Assembly (NCBI GenBank): GCA_046726415.1
Contig: JBKPAK010000146.1
Coordinates: 1 to 55,260 of the forward strand
Source: Candidatus Methylomirabilota bacterium
GTDB lineage: Bacteria > Methylomirabilota > Methylomirabilia > Rokubacteriales > CSP1-6
Length of the DNA stretch: 55,260 nucleotides
Direction of reading: 5' to 3'
The position numbers and the translations under genes are program-made. A model generated the notes under the pieces. The model made no database searches and was not told the origin of the DNA. It saw only the letters and a list, made by a program, of their open reading frames with translations. Positions 1 through 7,488 of this stretch are shown piece by piece (positions within the stretch are counted from its first letter, which is position 1; the number at the start of each line of letters is the position of its first letter).

Positions 1-354
1 GCCGCCATCGTGCGCGTCGACCTCGAAGACATGGCCCCGGAACCCGCGTTCGACCGGTTCGAAGGGCACGTTGACGACGGCCACCCACCCCTCCAGCTTC
101 GACAGCGCGGGATCGAGCGCGTAGATGTGCAGCGGCCGGTAGAGCGGGTCGTCGGGCTTGCGCTCGTACGGTCGCCCTTCGATCGCCCGCGTGACGCCCT
201 CGCCGATCGCGTAGTCGATGGATTCACCGGGCTCGAGCGGCGCCGGGGTCTCGGGTGGCACGGGCAGGCGACCCTGCTCGCGCGATCCGGCCATGGCCGC
301 CGCCGCGGGCGTGGTGGAAACGTCGCGGTCGCCGTCGTCGGGCAGGGCCGTCAC
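1..354 (-). CDS. 5' part of a probable M4/gluzincin-like metallopeptidase-family protein, running off the left edge
   Basis: Not in the ORF track. GTG at 354 overlaps the TGA of the caspase gene (GTGA) and the frame is open to base 1: VTALPDD...PYERKPDDPLYRPLHIYALDPALSKLEGWVAVVNVPFEPVERGFRGHVFEVDAHDGG. The product call is from recalled N-terminal similarity; no catalytic motif lies inside the window. Confidence 0.6.
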   Translation of the reverse strand, partial: MTALPDDGDRDVSTTPAAAAMAGSREQGRLPVPPETPAPLEPGESIDYAIGEGVTRAIEGRPYERKPDDPLYRPLHIYALDPALSKLEGWVAVVNVPFEPVERGFRGHVFEVDAHDGG

Positions 355-3284
355 CCCTCTGGCGCGAGCGCGCTGGCCAGCATGCGGAGCGCCTGGGCCA
401 CCGCGGCCGCGGACGGGGCGCCCGCCGTCGCGCCTCGACCGTCCACCGCCGGCGCCCCCGCTGGCGCGCCGACGAGCGGGGTGAGCAAACCCCGCGTCCG
501 AGCCAACGGGGCGCAGTCCAGTTCGGGGTGCTGGCGCGCACCCTCTCCGAATGCCCCAGTCACTCGCTCCTGGAATGCCTCATGCGTGAGGCTGCTGACC
601 CCGGCGGCCAGGATGCGCGTCGCCCGCACTGTGAAGTCGCCGTGGCCGGAGGTTTCGAAGGCCACCTCGTGGTCGCGGCACGCCGAGAACACCACCTGTC
701 GCATCGTTTCCGGGGTCCGCTTCGGCGCCGCCCGGGTGGCGCCGATCCGCTCGCGGAACCGCAGGTGCGCGGCCTCCATCTCGGGTGTCGCGGGCAGAAA
801 CCGCGCGCGCCGGTCGCGGCCGTCGCCGTCGGCGGCTGGTCCCACCATGACGCGCGTGATCGTCCCGGAATGGCAGCAGTCGATGAAGCACGTGAGGTTG
901 ACGCCGTCGGGCAAGGCGGTGAAAACCTCTGCGAGGTCGTCGTCGATCACGAAGGCCCCCTGGGCGATGTCGTACGGGCACAGCGCCTCGTCGCGCGGCC
1001 CGTTGGTCCCCGCCACCTCGTCGCCGTCGAGGTCCGGCAGCTCGGTGCCGTGCCCGGCGAACTGGAAGGCGAGCACGTCGCCGGGCCGGCCGCTGGCGAC
1101 GAGCGCGCGCAGGTCGTCGAGGATGCGGCTGCGCGTGGCGCTGTCGTCGAGGAGCAGCGCCGTCTCGAACCCGAGCACCTCGAAGCTCTGCGCCCAGTCG
1201 CGCGCGTCGGCCACGCAGCCGGCCAGCGGCATGGTTGGGTAGCGATCGATGCCGACGCAGAGGGCTCGCCGGCGGCCGGGTGCCGGCGACGATCCCGGCG
1301 GGGCGGCGGGTGCCGGCGCCCAGGTGGCGGGAACCACCCCGGCCGTGCCACTTCCGTTCGCCGGCGCGAAGAAGGCCGCCAAGACGGGCGGCAGCACTAT
1401 GGGGCGATTCCACAGGTCTAGACCGCGCTCAACCGCCTCGTCGGGGAACGACACGGCCGGCGGCGCACCGAGGATGCGGTGGGCGACGGCGTCCATGGTC
1501 GCGCGGTCGTTGTCGAAGCCGCCGTGGCTGCGCGAGGTGCTGGCCCTCGACCCCGACGTCGTCTCGCTCACCGACCACACCACCTCGTGCGGCGACGCGT
1601 TGCCGCCGAGACCGAACAGCCGGACGAGGTCGCGGTCGTCCCGCACCGACGCCTCCAGCCCGAGGATCGCCGTCTCGCGCTCGCGCTCGAGCGCATAGTG
1701 GATGAGATACAGGAGCGATTTCCGGTAGACCTGAGCGACGTGGTCATCCTCCTCCCAGTCGCGCTTCATCGTGAACATGGTGAGCGACTGGATGGACGCG
1801 CCGACGTGGTTCAGGAGCTGGTTCTTGAAGGCATCCACCCGGATAGCCGGCGCCAGGAGCTGGAGCGTCCGGAATGCCGGCGCGCCGAGCTCGACCGCCG
1901 CCGGCAGGAAGTGGGCGTGGAAGATGGAGCCGGCGCTGTGGCCCACCGCGTGGAGCTCGACCGGGCACGGCGGCGCCTGCAGGAACTTGACGAGCTTCTC
2001 GGCAACGTGGGTGGCGCCGCCGTTGCGGTCGGCGGCCAGCGCCGCACTGCGCTTCATGGCGGACCAGATCTTGGCGCCCCCGAGCGTGCGGGCGATCCCC
2101 TCGACGGCGGGGTCAGTCGTGTGGTCCCAGAGGTCCCGGGCCGCGCCGCGGGGCGCGGCCCCGCGCGCGCCGGACAGGATCTGCTTGATCGCGTCGCCGA
2201 AGCCCGTCTCCCACACGAAGTGAATCGGGTAGACGCCGTTCCGCTTCCACCACGACACCTGGAGCTGTGCGATGCGGAGCCCGCTCGCCTCGTCGATGAG
2301 GCCCCCGTGCGCCCAGAAACAAATGCGCAGGGGCTGGCCGTTGGCGGCCGCCTGCGCGGCGGCCCGGGCCAGGTGGTCGTCGAAGATTGCGTCCACATCG
2401 GCGCGAGACGTCGCGAAGAGCCCGCTGTCCGAGAAGCTGCCCTGGTTGAGGTTCACCACGTGCGGCCTGAGGCCGGCGAGGATCTCCGGCGACAATTCGG
2501 CGTCGCGGGCGCCGCGCCGCCCGTCGGGCGCCGCGCGGGTGGTGCCGGCGAGGCCGGCGATCAGGAGCACCTGCGCATCTGACATCTGGGACTCGGCGGG
2601 CTCGGCGTCCATCGGATCGAGGTCGCCCGCGCCGAGGTCGCGCGCTCCGGGGGCGCGCCATATGCGCAGCGCCTCGTCGGTCTGCTCGCGTACCCGGAGA
2701 CTCTCCGGCCCGGCCCACGTGTCGGCCGGGCGCGGGGCGCGCGTTCCCCCCCGCAGCGCGGACCGGCCGGTCTCCACCGCGGCCTTGATCGCGTCGAAGT
2801 CGACGCCCGTGCCGGGGCACGACTTGAGGTTCGTCATGGCTCGGTGGAATCGCAGCGAGTCCGGACCGAGCCCGAACCGCTCCTGGACCTGTGCGATCAC
2901 CCCGACCACGGCAGCGAGCTGGGCGCCCTCCAGGCGGTCCTGGCCGCGGTCGAAGTCGCCGATCGTCTCGAACATGAACGGGCCAGCCATCGCGTTGCCG
3001 TTGAAGCCGGCCGCGCTCGCGGGGGGCCAGTTCCAGTCGCGACCCGTCCAGATGCTGCCATCGGGCCCGATGCTGACGTGCTGGGCGATGTCGCGCCAGC
3101 CGTTCTCGCGCGTGTGGAAGCGCCACATCCCCTCGATCGTCGCCTCACCGCGGTATTGCGCGTGGTTCGGGCGCCACGTGTGGTGCATGTGGACTCCCTC
3201 GATCCTGCGCGTGAAGTCGAACCGCTGGAGCAGGTCGGCGAACTCGTCGAGGGTCAGGCGGATAAACTGAGGTGGCATGGGCAA
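351..3284 (-). CDS. Multidomain protein: N-acetylmuramoyl-L-alanine amidase/PGRP domain + alpha/beta-hydrolase + caspase-like peptidase C14
   Basis: Amidase motifs [40 protein letters not shown]. Hydrolase motifs [18 protein letters not shown]. Caspase motifs [39 protein letters not shown]. Confidence 0.9.
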
Positions 3285-3366
3285 CCTCCACGGGTCGTCT
3301 GCGCCGAGGGTAGCCGATCAGGCGCTACCGTCAACGGAAATGTGCGGCGGTGATAGAGTCGTGGCC

Positions 3367-5193
<1,827 letters not shown>

Positions 5194-5303
5194 GCGGCGC
5201 CCTCCGGATCGCTCGAGGCCGCCCCAGCGGGCCTGGCGCGGTGCGCTCAGGCCGCGAGGGATCAGGACCTTGTCCTCCACCGAGTCGCGGGAGGTGACCC
5301 CTG

Positions 5304-5486
5304 ATGGTTCCCGTCGAAGTCCGAGCGTTTGGGCTGCTGGCCGCCTGCGTGATCCTGCTGGCCGTGGTGCTGATCGTCCAGTGGGTGCCGAGCCGCGCGG
5401 CGATCGTGGCGAAGCCGGTGACGCTCCTGATCCTTCTGGTCGTGATCGTCCTCGGGATTGCGGTGTTGGTCATCACGGCGCAATGA
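5304..5486 (+). CDS. Small two-helix membrane protein
   Basis: GGAGGT RBS and two long hydrophobic segments in 60 aa. Confidence 0.55.
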   Translation: MVPVEVRAFGLLAACVILLAVVLIVQWVPSRAAIVAKPVTLLILLVVIVLGIAVLVITAQ

Positions 5487-5633
5487 CTCGTGTTGCAGCG
5501 CCCAACGTGCTGGCCCTCGGCGATGCACCCCCCGACTCGACGGTCCGGGATCGCTTGCCCATCGCCGCCCGGAAACCCGTCGACCTCCTCTGACCCGGTC
5601 CCGGGCCAATCTCGCCCTCAGGGAAGGAACCGC

Positions 5634-6914
5634 ATGAACGTCTACAACACGCGATCACGCGCCATCGAGCGGTTCCAGCCCGCCGACCGGCGCGTCGGCC
5701 TCTACGTGTGCGGCATCACACCCTACGACACCACCCACCTCGGCCACGCCTTCACCTACACCATGGCCGACGTGTTCGTGCGGTACCTGGAGGCCCGGGG
5801 CCTGACCGTGCGCTACGTCCAGAACGTCACCGACATCGACGACGACATTCTGCGCAAGGCGCAGGAGACCGGCGAGGACTGGCGCACCCTGGGCAACCGC
5901 TGGACCGCGCACTTCATCCGCGACATGCAGGCGCTCAACGTGCGGCCGCCGGACGAGTATCCGCGCGCGAGCGACGCCGTCCCCGAGATCGTCGCGGCCG
6001 TGCGCGCCCTGATCGCGCGGGGGCTGGCGTACGAGTCACGCGGCAGCGTGTACTTTTGCGTCGACGCCTGGCCCGAATTCGGCCAGCTCAGCCACCTGGA
6101 ACGTGCCGAGATGCTGCCGGTGGCCAACGAGCGCGGCAATCGACCCGACGACCCGAACAAGCGCGATCCCCTCGACTTCGTGCTGTGGCAGGCGCAGGCG
6201 CCCGGAGAGCCGGCCTGGGAGAGCCCCTGGGGTCCCGGGCGACCCGGCTGGCACATCGAGTGCTCTGTGATGAGCACGCGTGCCCTGGGAAAGACGCTCG
6301 ACTTCCACGGGGGCGGGGAGGATCTCGTCTTCCCGCATCACGAGTGCGAGATCGCTCAGGCTGAGCCGATCACCGGCCAGAAGCCCTTCGTCCGCGTGTG
6401 GCTGCACGCCGCCATGGTCGAGCACGAAGGCGCGAAGATGAGCAAGTCGCTCGGCAACCTGGTCATGGTGGGCGATCTGTTGCGCCGATGGTCGGCCGAC
6501 ACCGTGCGCCTTTACCTCGGCCAGCATCACTACCGTCGCCCCTGGTCCCACAACGTCGACGAGTTGGCCGAGGCCGATCGCCTCGCCAGAAAGCTCGAGA
6601 CCGCGGCCACCGTTCGCGGCGGTGGCGGGGAGGTGCTGGACGCCAGCAGCGCGCAGGCTGCGTTCACGGCGGCCATGAACGACGATCTGAACACGCCGGC
6701 GGCCCTGGAGCGGCTCGAGGCTCTCGCCGATCTGATCCAGGCCGCTGCTCGGGCCGGTCACCAGCTCGGGCCGGCGCAAGCAGTCCTGCGGCGCCTCGGC
6801 CAGGTCTTCGGGCTACGCCTCGATGCCGCCGAGGTCGAGGCGCGCGTCATTGAGGGCTGGAGCACGCACCTGCGGCGCTTCGCCGCCGCCGATTGCTCAG
6901 CAGACTCGCGCTGA
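5634..6914 (+). CDS. Cysteine-tRNA ligase family protein of the MshC-like type (no anticodon-binding tail)
   Basis: CGITPYDTTHLGH (HIGH-like), VQNVTDIDD, PGRPGWHIEC, FPHHECE, KMSKSLGN, AMNDDLNTP. GGAAGGA RBS before ATG 5634. Confidence 0.88.
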   Translation: MNVYNTRSRAIERFQPADRRVGLYVCGITPYDTTHLGHAFTYTMADVFVRYLEARGLTVRYVQNVTDIDDDILRKAQETGEDWRTLGNRWTAHFIRDMQALNVRPPDEYPRASDAVPEIVAAVRALIARGLAYESRGSVYFCVDAWPEFGQLSHLERAEMLPVANERGNRPDDPNKRDPLDFVLWQAQAPGEPAWESPWGPGRPGWHIECSVMSTRALGKTLDFHGGGEDLVFPHHECEIAQAEPITGQKPFVRVWLHAAMVEHEGAKMSKSLGNLVMVGDLLRRWSADTVRLYLGQHHYRRPWSHNVDELAEADRLARKLETAATVRGGGGEVLDASSAQAAFTAAMNDDLNTPAALERLEALADLIQAAARAGHQLGPAQAVLRRLGQVFGLRLDAAEVEARVIEGWSTHLRRFAAADCSADSR

Positions 6915-7122
6915 GGCTGCGTCCTTCGTGGACGTGGCCACCGTCAAGGCGCGCGAGGGATCGAAGAGGACCACCCAGAGCAGCGGGCCCGTGGCCACCG
7001 TCAGGAAGGTCGATACGGCCTCGGCCGCCCCTACGGAGGAGGGAGCGTTCGGACCAAAGAGGCTCAAGATCCCGCTCTCGAGGCCCTGAGCGACAAGAGG
7101 CATGCGCTCCCAGCCGGCGGGC

Positions 7123-7488
7123 TCACAGGTTCTTGTACTTCTCGTGAAGCTCGGTCTTGCGGTGCTCCCGGTCCCGCAGACCGGCGGTAAGCTCGGACTT
7201 GCGGCGGTCCGCTTCTTCGGATTCGTGCCGCATGCGTTTGCTGACGTCGAGCATCCAGCCGTCAATGTTGCCGATGAGCTTCTCCAGATCGCTACCGTCT
7301 CGGCACACGAACGTGATCTTGTTCCCGTTGATGGTGAGCCGATACCCACCGGCCCCGTCGGCGGTGGCCTCCTGGAAATACCTGCCCCACACTCGGCTCG
7401 GCGCCGACGTCAGCATGATCTGCCAGAGCCAGCCGTCCGATCCACGGTCCTCGAGGGGAGTCACGCCTTTCACTCTCTCGACGTCCAT
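7123..7488 (-). CDS. Hypothetical protein with a charged C-terminal helix
   Basis: GGAGG RBS before ATG 7488 and protein-like composition, unlike the shadow ORFs. Confidence 0.65.
   Translation of the reverse strand: MDVERVKGVTPLEDRGSDGWLWQIMLTSAPSRVWGRYFQEATADGAGGYRLTINGNKITFVCRDGSDLEKLIGNIDGWMLDVSKRMRHESEEADRRKSELTAGLRDREHRKTELHEKYKNL

Follow-up and report, generated by a model that had tools for sequence, protein, structure and literature searches.

A two-gene cassette from a Methylomirabilota genome, in which an amidase-hydrolase-caspase fusion is paired with a thermolysin-like protease: a candidate self-destruction module

Introduction

What use does a bacterium have for one protein that joins a peptidoglycan amidase-like domain, an alpha/beta-hydrolase and a caspase-like protease? 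The question is raised by a gene at the start of contig C146 (GenBank JBKPAK010000146.1) of a Candidatus Methylomirabilota bacterium (assembly GCA_046726415.1); the whole stretch analysed, 55,260 nt, is here called the window. The first-pass annotation of this DNA took the gene for a candidate undescribed single-chain system, in which a domain resembling peptidoglycan recognition proteins (PGRPs) senses muropeptides and the protease then licenses the hydrolase as effector. Here, we report that the gene is one part of a two-gene cassette, the second gene of which encodes a predicted thermolysin-like protease. The cassette is real, conserved and uncharacterised, and it is less novel than had been supposed.

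Results

The fusion gene

The cassette lies on the minus strand (Table 1). The open reading frame (ORF) has 977 codons when counted from TTG. Translation probably begins at the ATG at 3278, which yields a protein of 975 aa, as this codon has a GGAGG 6 nt upstream, the corresponding Met3 is invariant among the aligned homologues, and the database protein P0001, 99% identical to the fusion protein, is also 975 aa long. Because the window is GC-rich (0.67-0.76) and full of long spurious (shadow) ORFs, the reality of the gene rests on its homologues. Pfam families PF00656 and PF01510 occur together in 116 of the best 120 hits (out of at least 1228), in proteins of 920-1034 aa, and the homologues come from Binatia, Desulfobacterota, Nitrospirota, Acidobacteriota, Armatimonadota, Chloroflexota, Gemmatimonadota, Pseudomonadota and other groups. 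Misassembly does not explain the fusion, as independent soil metagenome contigs bridge both domain junctions at 97-99% identity; those of X2 cover window positions 38-2003 and 2005-3400, and those of X1 cover 1399-2360 and 2392-3059.

Most of what the first-pass annotation had read from the gene was borne out. Pfam, AlphaFold2 and VIA-align together show an Amidase_2, an alpha/beta-hydrolase and a C14 domain within one ORF, the motifs it quoted (GHSAG, FAGHG and DCCHSG) exist and are invariant in all 37 members of our full-length alignment, the join is not chimeric, and the architecture recurs across many phyla. The signal peptide that it had found lacking was not detected by us either: in a simple Kyte-Doolittle hydropathy scan, which is a crude test, neither the fusion protein (maximum 19-residue mean 1.19) nor the partner showed a transmembrane helix or signal peptide segment.

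Table 1. Positions of the cassette features in the window
Feature	Position	Strand	Basis and remarks
Three-domain (fusion) protein gene	351..3284	-	ORF listing from TTG 3284; likely ATG 3278, 975 aa; stop 351-353
Ribosome-binding site GGAGG	3285..3289	-	Direct sequence reading; 6 nt upstream of ATG 3278
Amidase_2 / PGRP-like domain, residues 26-158	2811..3209	-	Pfam, alignment, PDB profile search
Variable linker 1, residues 159-265	2490..2810	-	Alignment
Alpha/beta-hydrolase domain, residues 266-620	1425..2489	-	Alignment, AlphaFold2, VIA-align
Variable Pro/Ala-rich linker 2, residues 621-670	1275..1424	-	Alignment
Peptidase C14 (metacaspase-like) domain, residues 671-927; His745, Cys804	504..1274	-	Pfam, PADLOC, alignment
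Partner gene, first 118 codons, predicted thermolysin-like HExxH protease	1..354	-	GTG start 354; continues on C61

Catalytic domains of the fusion protein

The active sites of the fusion protein (His34/His147/Cys156, Ser450/Asp514/His587 and His745/Cys804) are intact in 37/37 aligned members. At the C-terminus, Pfam Peptidase_C14 (PF00656) matched residues 671-927 with E 6.8e-22 (78.7 bits, cut-off 21.4), and a family profile searched against the PDB returned Geobacter GSU0716 (9e-29) and the metacaspases MCA2 and Yca1 (1e-28 to 2e-26); NCBIfam gave only a sub-threshold caspase match for the fusion protein. His745 (FAGHG), Asp802 and Cys804 (DCCHSG) are invariant in 37/37. Asp802 sits two residues before Cys804 and may be an acidic residue of the S1 pocket, as in TbMCA2. 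The metacaspase-like protease is presumably Arg/Lys-specific.

Candidate target residues were sought among the conserved arginines, which were counted over 117 sequences. Arg256 (86%), Arg374 (80%), Arg379 (71%), Arg383 (88%) and Arg620 (97%) fall within otherwise variable or low-confidence segments, and an Arg-rich loop of residues 372-385 was modelled with low confidence in the hydrolase. Gly follows the conserved Arg in just 39-55% of sequences (Arg620-Gly, 55%). Arg620 comes directly before linker 2, and Arg256 lies in linker 1, which also holds an acidic motif, D-P-x-D-A-E, with Glu228 conserved at 99%.

The same genome has a second, stand-alone caspase-family gene, C311:8252-9109 (L150), whose 285-aa product is 43% identical in the caspase domain. 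This gene is close to the end of a contig and adjoins luciferase-like monooxygenase genes; no hydrolase was recognised in 8 kb of sequence there.

The middle of the fusion protein belongs to no curated Pfam hydrolase family (E <= 1), and residues 160-670 had no Pfam match at E <= 1 except a chance one to KH. A profile search returned no PDB sequence match to this domain either. The AlphaFold2 model of residues 266-625 (pLDDT, the predicted local distance difference test score, 90.9) nevertheless has an alpha/beta-hydrolase fold. VIA-align placed it with phospholipase A1 (4qnn, Z 12.4), dienelactone hydrolase (Z 12.2) and many lipases, esterases, thioesterases, dienelactone hydrolases and PGAP1 at Z 10-12.4 over 167-219 residues. 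Foldseek found no PDB entry at E <= 0.001, and its weak rows included the type VI secretion system phospholipase Tle1 (6sjl, E 4e-3) and 4o5p (E 1.4e-3). HGG 326-328, GHSAG 448-452 (Ser450), Asp514 and His587 are invariant in 37/37. In the model, GHSAG follows the strand at 442-449, Asp514 the strand at 498-506 and His587 the strand at 567-571, so that Ser450/Asp514/His587 come after strands 5, 7 and 8, in canonical order. A rhizobial relative (29% identity) gave a sub-threshold DUF900 match only (17 bits against 20.5). By alignment and model, the constant core of the cassette is a lipase/esterase-like alpha/beta-hydrolase.

The N-terminal domain matched Pfam Amidase_2 (PF01510) over residues 26-158 (E 1.7e-9, 38.5 bits, cut-off 26), and its family profile found PGRP-LB (1.4e-7) and T7 lysozyme (2.5e-7) in the PDB. 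The best solved-structure matches are insect PGRPs, including the non-catalytic PGRP-SA and PGRP-LE (E 2.7e-7 to 1.8e-6), with no AmpD among the matches. His32, His34, His35, Asp65, Gln68, His69, His147 and Cys156 are invariant in 37/37. His34 pairs with PGRP-LB His42 in a residue-level alignment, and His147 and Cys156 lie within an FH...K.CPG motif. His42 is a zinc ligand of PGRP-LB, and the zinc-binding residues of PGRP-LB and T7 lysozyme serve as the reference for the triad. The invariant Gln68 occupies the position of PGRP-LB Tyr78, which, like T7 lysozyme Tyr46, is presumably the catalytic tyrosine. As aligned, the predicted His-His-Cys zinc triad is thus kept and the catalytic Tyr replaced family-wide.

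The thermolysin-like partner

The fusion gene's stop codon and the GTG start codon of a partner gene overlap in the tetranucleotide GTGA. The partner ORF leaves the window at base 1. As window bases 1-220 match the end of contig C61 (G000 C61:12676-12895, L055) with 98% identity, the assembly breaks within the partner gene, probably due to strain heterogeneity. On C61 the frame continues for approximately 570 further codons, which include HEVTH and HEGFAD motifs; the X3 metagenome contig likewise extends beyond window base 1. The full partner, approximately 650 aa, can be read solely by joining both contigs.

HExxH and a downstream HE..D are invariant in 24/24 partner homologues (His236-Glu237-xx-His240 and His262-Glu263...Asp267 in the numbering of L024). 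With an AlphaFold2 model of the L024 homologue (pLDDT 87.5), Foldseek matched, at E <= 0.001, M4 and M36 enzymes alone (29 PDB chains, probability 1.00); vibriolysin, fungalysin, ProA, LasB and thermolysin were matched at E 3e-6 with target-normalised TM (template modelling) scores of 0.55-0.70. Sequence searches did not reach this assignment: the C61 fragment had no Pfam match at E <= 1 and no M4/M36 sequence model matched, three full-length amidase-type partner homologues had no Pfam family at E <= 0.01, the partner had no match among PDB sequences at E <= 0.1, and the fragment had no PADLOC match. 'Peptidase M4' is the NCBI name for some members of the partner family, and an ESM Atlas lead agrees. 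On its motifs and its modelled fold, we conclude that the partner is a thermolysin-like (M4/M36 fold) HExxH protease.

Partner ORFs of the amidase-type cassettes are approximately 620-650 aa, and the model includes an extra C-terminal beta domain at residues 540-645. An N-terminal peptide, STPxAxAAxAQS(R), is present in 74/120 partner homologues. It was considered as a caspase site and dropped, as some homologues have His or Gln at the Arg position.

The partner belongs to a large family, with 5421 cluster representatives at E <= 0.001 and 1702 at E <= 1e-30. When 22 of its long members were scanned, eight had an N-terminal S8 subtilase, one of these with a C-terminal GDPD phosphodiesterase in addition, two had PG_binding_1 (one with CHAP), one had a TPR-S sensor domain, one had a second M4 catalytic motif and ten had nothing recognisable. 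The proteins fused to S8, GDPD or TPR-S are P0438, P0448, P0451, P0526, P0533, P0479, P0488, P0505 and P0455. Their domains suggest that they may be further uncharacterised two-protease modules, and the fusions in the partner family would fit the modularity of conflict systems.

Linkage and distribution

A domain-by-domain tblastn map covered 52 genome loci and 80 metagenome loci. Hydrolase and caspase are fused in 45/52 and 48/80 of these, respectively, while 16 metagenome loci and one genome locus were too short for fusion to be judged. Eleven metagenome loci, five of them with the amidase, have no fused caspase although the downstream sequence is sufficient.

The partner was called absent where at least 2.3 kb of downstream sequence exists. 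On this basis, it neighbours the fused caspase gene at 70 of the 79 informative loci (34/41 genome and 36/38 metagenome). Among the 45 fused genome loci it is present in 34, absent from 7 and undecidable in 4, and among the 48 fused metagenome loci the figures are 36, 2 and 10. The system is therefore not the single chain that the first-pass annotation made of it, as a second, translationally coupled gene usually accompanies the fusion gene. In all-against-all clustering of the ORFs at the 52 genome loci, the fusion gene and the partner were the sole conserved genes, with no third; the other large ORF clusters were antisense shadows. Segments L003:3273-5039 and L004:8076-9935, examined as replacements at two loci that lack the partner, are unrelated to the partner profile.

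Searches detected the hydrolase domain in 16 of 61 related genomes (a figure that includes G000, the window's own genome, and the unpublished G330) and in neither of two genomes of the same genus (72% and 95% complete). The cassette is thus accessory and patchy in the window's own lineage, and it also turns up, at 50-60% identity, in many unrelated phyla. A search of 50,697 phage records gave one match, weak and to the caspase only. In the window, the neighbour is a GH15/trehalase-like glycoside hydrolase gene (3277-5193, plus strand), divergent from the cassette, and a cysteinyl-tRNA synthetase gene (5490-6914, plus strand) is next.

Variant architectures

The amidase is missing from 13/52 genome loci that keep the hydrolase and caspase and have at least 900 nt available upstream, and from 7/80 metagenome loci that keep both. 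In five loci (L034-L038), DUF7379, which is another PGAP1-like hydrolase, stands in its place. All five have a partner with a C-terminal extension, consisting of PG_binding_1 with GH19 (four loci) or with CHAP (one locus), unlike the three amidase-type partners scanned, which have no Pfam match. A further arrangement, L135:2510-10150, has three genes in a row, encoding an Amidase_2-caspase protein (597 aa), a DUF7379-hydrolase-caspase protein (ORF of at most 1385 aa) and an M4-like partner (641 aa); a cassette of this form encodes two caspases. From these arrangements, cell-wall hydrolases of three predicted catalytic types shift between two protein carriers yet remain in the system.

The protease associated with the hydrolase varies too. 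Amidase-hydrolase proteins that lack the fused caspase were found in five metagenome loci. A Trypsin_2 protease is encoded by the next gene in L098, L117, L126 and L100/L099, and a caspase-containing protein follows in L098 and L099, with a C-terminal Trypsin_2 in L098. On rhizobial and Eleftheria plasmids, a hydrolase of 28-33% identity forms the C-terminal half of proteins named 'C1 family peptidase'. In Sinorhizobium sp. B11 plasmid p1 (L142, CDS 5179-7137) the N-terminal half scores above the Pfam papain threshold, and in the Eleftheria terrae plasmid (L143, CDS 5032-6969) the papain match is sub-threshold. Upstream of the rhizobial C1-hydrolase gene lies a gene that was tried as a partner and is unrelated to the partner profile. 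Around the hydrolase, proteases of predicted caspase, trypsin and papain type thus interchange, whether by fusion or by adjacency. Stand-alone hydrolases of 360-375 aa also exist, for example in Nakamurella multipartita.

Two further forms of the locus were seen. In Desulfopila-type loci (L004:9992-10810 and L089:4334-5152), a stand-alone caspase gene (272 aa) immediately precedes the fusion gene, and there is no M4-like partner. In P0099 (Azospirillum canadense, 1657 aa), the amidase-hydrolase-caspase core is followed by an extra C-terminal CHAT, which is likewise a caspase-superfamily domain.

Discussion

A protease-gated lysis or death module

The explanation that we favour is that the two genes and their four predicted hydrolases form a protease-gated, multi-effector module for lysis or death of the cell that carries it, a reading to which we give about an even chance. 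Once activated, the metacaspase-like protease would cut at conserved arginines in the linkers and the hydrolase loop, thereby releasing or unlocking both the hydrolase and the zinc amidase at the N-terminus. The caspase might also process the co-translated thermolysin-like protease. Secreted relatives of that protease family are zymogens. Attack on membranes or lipids, cleavage of the cell wall and unrestrained proteolysis would together kill or lyse the cell, and one plausible use would be to abort a phage infection. Cleavage, the order of events, toxicity and a role in phage defence are all inferred. We favour a module of this kind because the interchange of proteases and cell-wall hydrolases, together with the conserved Arg residues, matches published protease-effector modules. 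The cell-wall hydrolase fits better as a putative output than as a ligand sensor, because cell-wall enzymes that differ in chemistry take each other's place.

Several observations weigh against this explanation. The partner is usual and not indispensable: neither the closest genome relative, L003 (77% identity), nor the Desulfopila isolate L004 has it, and when five partner-less genomes were searched whole, four yielded no copy and the fifth a 53-bit match. Five of the stand-alone hydrolases (approximately 375 aa; L066, L076, L079, L082 and L083) lie directly downstream of secA, and no caspase, amidase, partner or other protease was found near stand-alone hydrolases in the six loci with enough flank on both sides, so the hydrolase is not necessarily a zymogen that depends on a protease. 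The residue that corresponds to Arg620 (Arg348 in alignment A4) is invariant in these protease-less copies, and Arg620 may therefore be structural and not a cleavage site. Amidase activity is uncertain because of the Gln in place of the catalytic Tyr. Pfam scans of the fusion protein and the partner revealed no sensor domain that could trigger the proteases. The flanks hold housekeeping genes (GH15 trehalase-like, cysteinyl-tRNA synthetase, UPF0182 and GroEL) and no defence island, and the sole PADLOC match was to the generic PDLC02987 'caspase' (3.9e-18), with no complete system. An Actinomycetota search with a stand-alone homologue found the family in 2 of 301 sampled genomes, whereas the caspase-dependent hydrolase described by Evans et al. 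(2025) is, in the portion of that article covered here, widespread in Actinobacteria (PMC12642450). The literature searched holds no experiment on the present family.

Alternative explanations

The PGRP-like domain could instead be a cytosolic sensor, as the first-pass annotation proposed, with muropeptides from wall damage or from phage lysis from within switching on the caspase, which would release the hydrolase. Here, the fold stood, as the Amidase_2/PGRP domain is real and conserved, while the sensor role fared less well. Receptor-type PGRPs usually lack the zinc triad, whereas His34/His147/Cys156 are invariant in the family. The domain is absent from hydrolase-caspase loci (13/52 genome, 7/80 metagenome), can be swapped for DUF7379, in which case GH19 or CHAP is found on the partner, and in five loci belongs to amidase-hydrolase proteins that have no fused caspase. 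Set against this, Pfam offers no other candidate sensor domain in the two proteins, the best structure matches include the non-catalytic receptors PGRP-SA and PGRP-LE, the invariant Gln at the PGRP-LB Tyr78 position could favour binding over turnover, and the hydropathy scan found no export signal, so that the domain would meet recycling muropeptides. On balance, we regard a muropeptide sensor as doubtful. More ambitious is the idea that a PGRP domain wired to a caspase makes the cassette a bacterial, single-operon counterpart of the insect IMD axis, in which the caspase would activate a cytoplasmic thermolysin-like zymogen and this muropeptide-triggered two-protease cascade would kill the cell by lipid and wall hydrolysis. 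It strikes us as slightly more doubtful.

Two other explanations direct the enzymes elsewhere. An exported or delivered toxin could attack the envelopes of competitors, with the caspase processing its own chain as the autoprocessing domains of toxins do. The enzyme set resembles that of envelope-targeting effectors, weak Foldseek rows to Tle1 (6sjl, E 4e-3) and 4o5p (E 1.4e-3) point the same way, and a related Chitinophaga protein has been called 'a highly destructive weapon' in the part of the source covered here (PMC3501461). The structural matches are, on the other hand, generic for alpha/beta-hydrolases. No signal peptide or hydrophobic segment appeared in the hydropathy scan, and Pfam found no secretion-marker domain. 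Nor are there conserved immunity or secretion genes nearby, the two cassette genes being those conserved across the 52 loci; we consider a weapon of this kind unlikely. Housekeeping turnover of the wall, in which an AmpD-like amidase, the hydrolase and the proteases would degrade recycled muropeptides or lipoprotein-linked wall fragments, would agree with the housekeeping neighbours, the synteny of stand-alone hydrolases with secA and the lack of an export signal in the hydropathy scan. It sits poorly with a patchy, accessory distribution (0/2 genomes of the same genus, 16/61 relatives), with the spread of the cassette over many unrelated phyla at 50-60% identity, with two endoproteases that have no obvious role in muropeptide recycling and with the lack of AmpD among the solved-structure matches, and appears to us very unlikely. 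Whatever probability remains belongs to explanations beyond the self-destruction module and its three rivals, the muropeptide sensor, the exported weapon and wall turnover.

Relationship to known systems

Parts of the cassette are already in print. Fusions of Amidase_2 to a metacaspase were reported by Asplund-Samuelsson et al. in 2012 from four genomes (Polaromonas naphthalenivorans, Nitrosococcus oceani, Chitinophaga pinensis and Desulfobacterium autotrophicum) and were tied to autolysis and programmed cell death, according to the portion of that article covered here (PMC3501461). They share with the window's protein the same Pfam pair in one chain and the link between peptidoglycan hydrolysis, autolysis and cell death. 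To that extent, the system is not wholly undescribed. The middle hydrolase, the thermolysin-like partner and the variant architectures go unrecognised in the same portion of the 2012 survey, which gives no functional test (PMC3501461).

The pairing of a hydrolase with a caspase, and the zymogen mechanism, have likewise been published, going by the parts of two articles covered here (PMC7159879, PMC12642450). Kaur et al. (2020) noted that the caspase domain in VMAP/MoxR-vWA ternary systems is always accompanied by a neighbouring alpha/beta-hydrolase gene (PMC7159879). Evans et al. (2025) showed that LcCaspase cleaves LcHydrolase after Arg73 and Arg117 (Arg-Gly), and that the fragments kill Escherichia coli; they also noted that trypsin-, caspase- and subtilisin-like proteases all work with a single effector family (PMC12642450). 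The first-pass proposal that a caspase licenses an effector thus has precedent, for an alpha/beta-hydrolase, in both. Like these modules, so far as the covered text describes them, the cassette links a caspase-superfamily protease to an alpha/beta-hydrolase, the protease classes are interchangeable, and conserved Arg residues, often Arg-Gly, lie in flexible segments. It differs in that the window's hydrolase is fused to the caspase, theirs being encoded by a neighbouring gene, in that it has no STAND, vWA, MoxR or beta-transducin sensor, and in that it adds a predicted peptidoglycan amidase and a thermolysin-like protease. The window's hydrolase is approximately 355 aa and LcHydrolase approximately 295 aa, the latter an estimate from the fragment masses quoted; the two were compared by description only.

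A caspase-superfamily protease also acts as the killing or licensing step in bacterial gasdermin systems (cited in the covered part of PMC12642450) and as a caspase-like executioner in type IV Thoeris (bioRxiv 10.1101/2024.10.24.620036, covered in part). The cassette would share that step and differs in its company, as no TIR or gasdermin partner was recognised among its two conserved genes; the flanks had no dedicated profile search. A domain-centric survey of defence systems (NAR 2026) mentions caspases for Thoeris only.

Two further comparisons concern the enzymes themselves. The partner shares HExxH with a downstream Glu and a two-lobed fold with the thermolysins and fungalysins (M4 and M36, such as the vibriolysin MCP-02, 3nqx, and LasB). 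It differs from them in having no signal peptide detected by the hydropathy scan, no Pfam M4/M36 match, an extra C-terminal beta domain and a conserved N-terminal peptide. Canonical secreted M4 enzymes carry FTP/PepSY propeptides, and Pfam found none on the partner. Mycobacteriophages dismantle a multilayered envelope from within by means of LysA, which combines a peptidase, an Amidase_2 or GH19 domain and a peptidoglycan-binding domain, and LysB, a lipolytic alpha/beta-hydrolase. The cassette family similarly unites a peptidase, Amidase_2 or GH19, PG_binding_1 and an alpha/beta-hydrolase esterase, but, on the phage records searched, it is not phage-borne, it has no holin, and its two endoproteases are from other families.

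The literature search returned no paper on DUF7379. It also returned no account of the thermolysin-like partner family and none of the fused four-enzyme arrangement or the migrating cell-wall hydrolase; supplementary tables lay outside this search and may hold more.

Significance

If the self-destruction reading is true, it would extend the logic by which a protease licenses a latent death effector to a compact system with no attached nucleoside triphosphatase sensor, and to several effectors together, namely an enzyme for lipids or esters, one for the cell wall and a further protease. Lineages of soil, sediment and nitrifiers, in which immunity is seldom studied, commonly carry the cassette. 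It offers a concrete test case for protease cascades that involve bacterial caspases, and for the PGRP fold as a possible intracellular sensor of danger.

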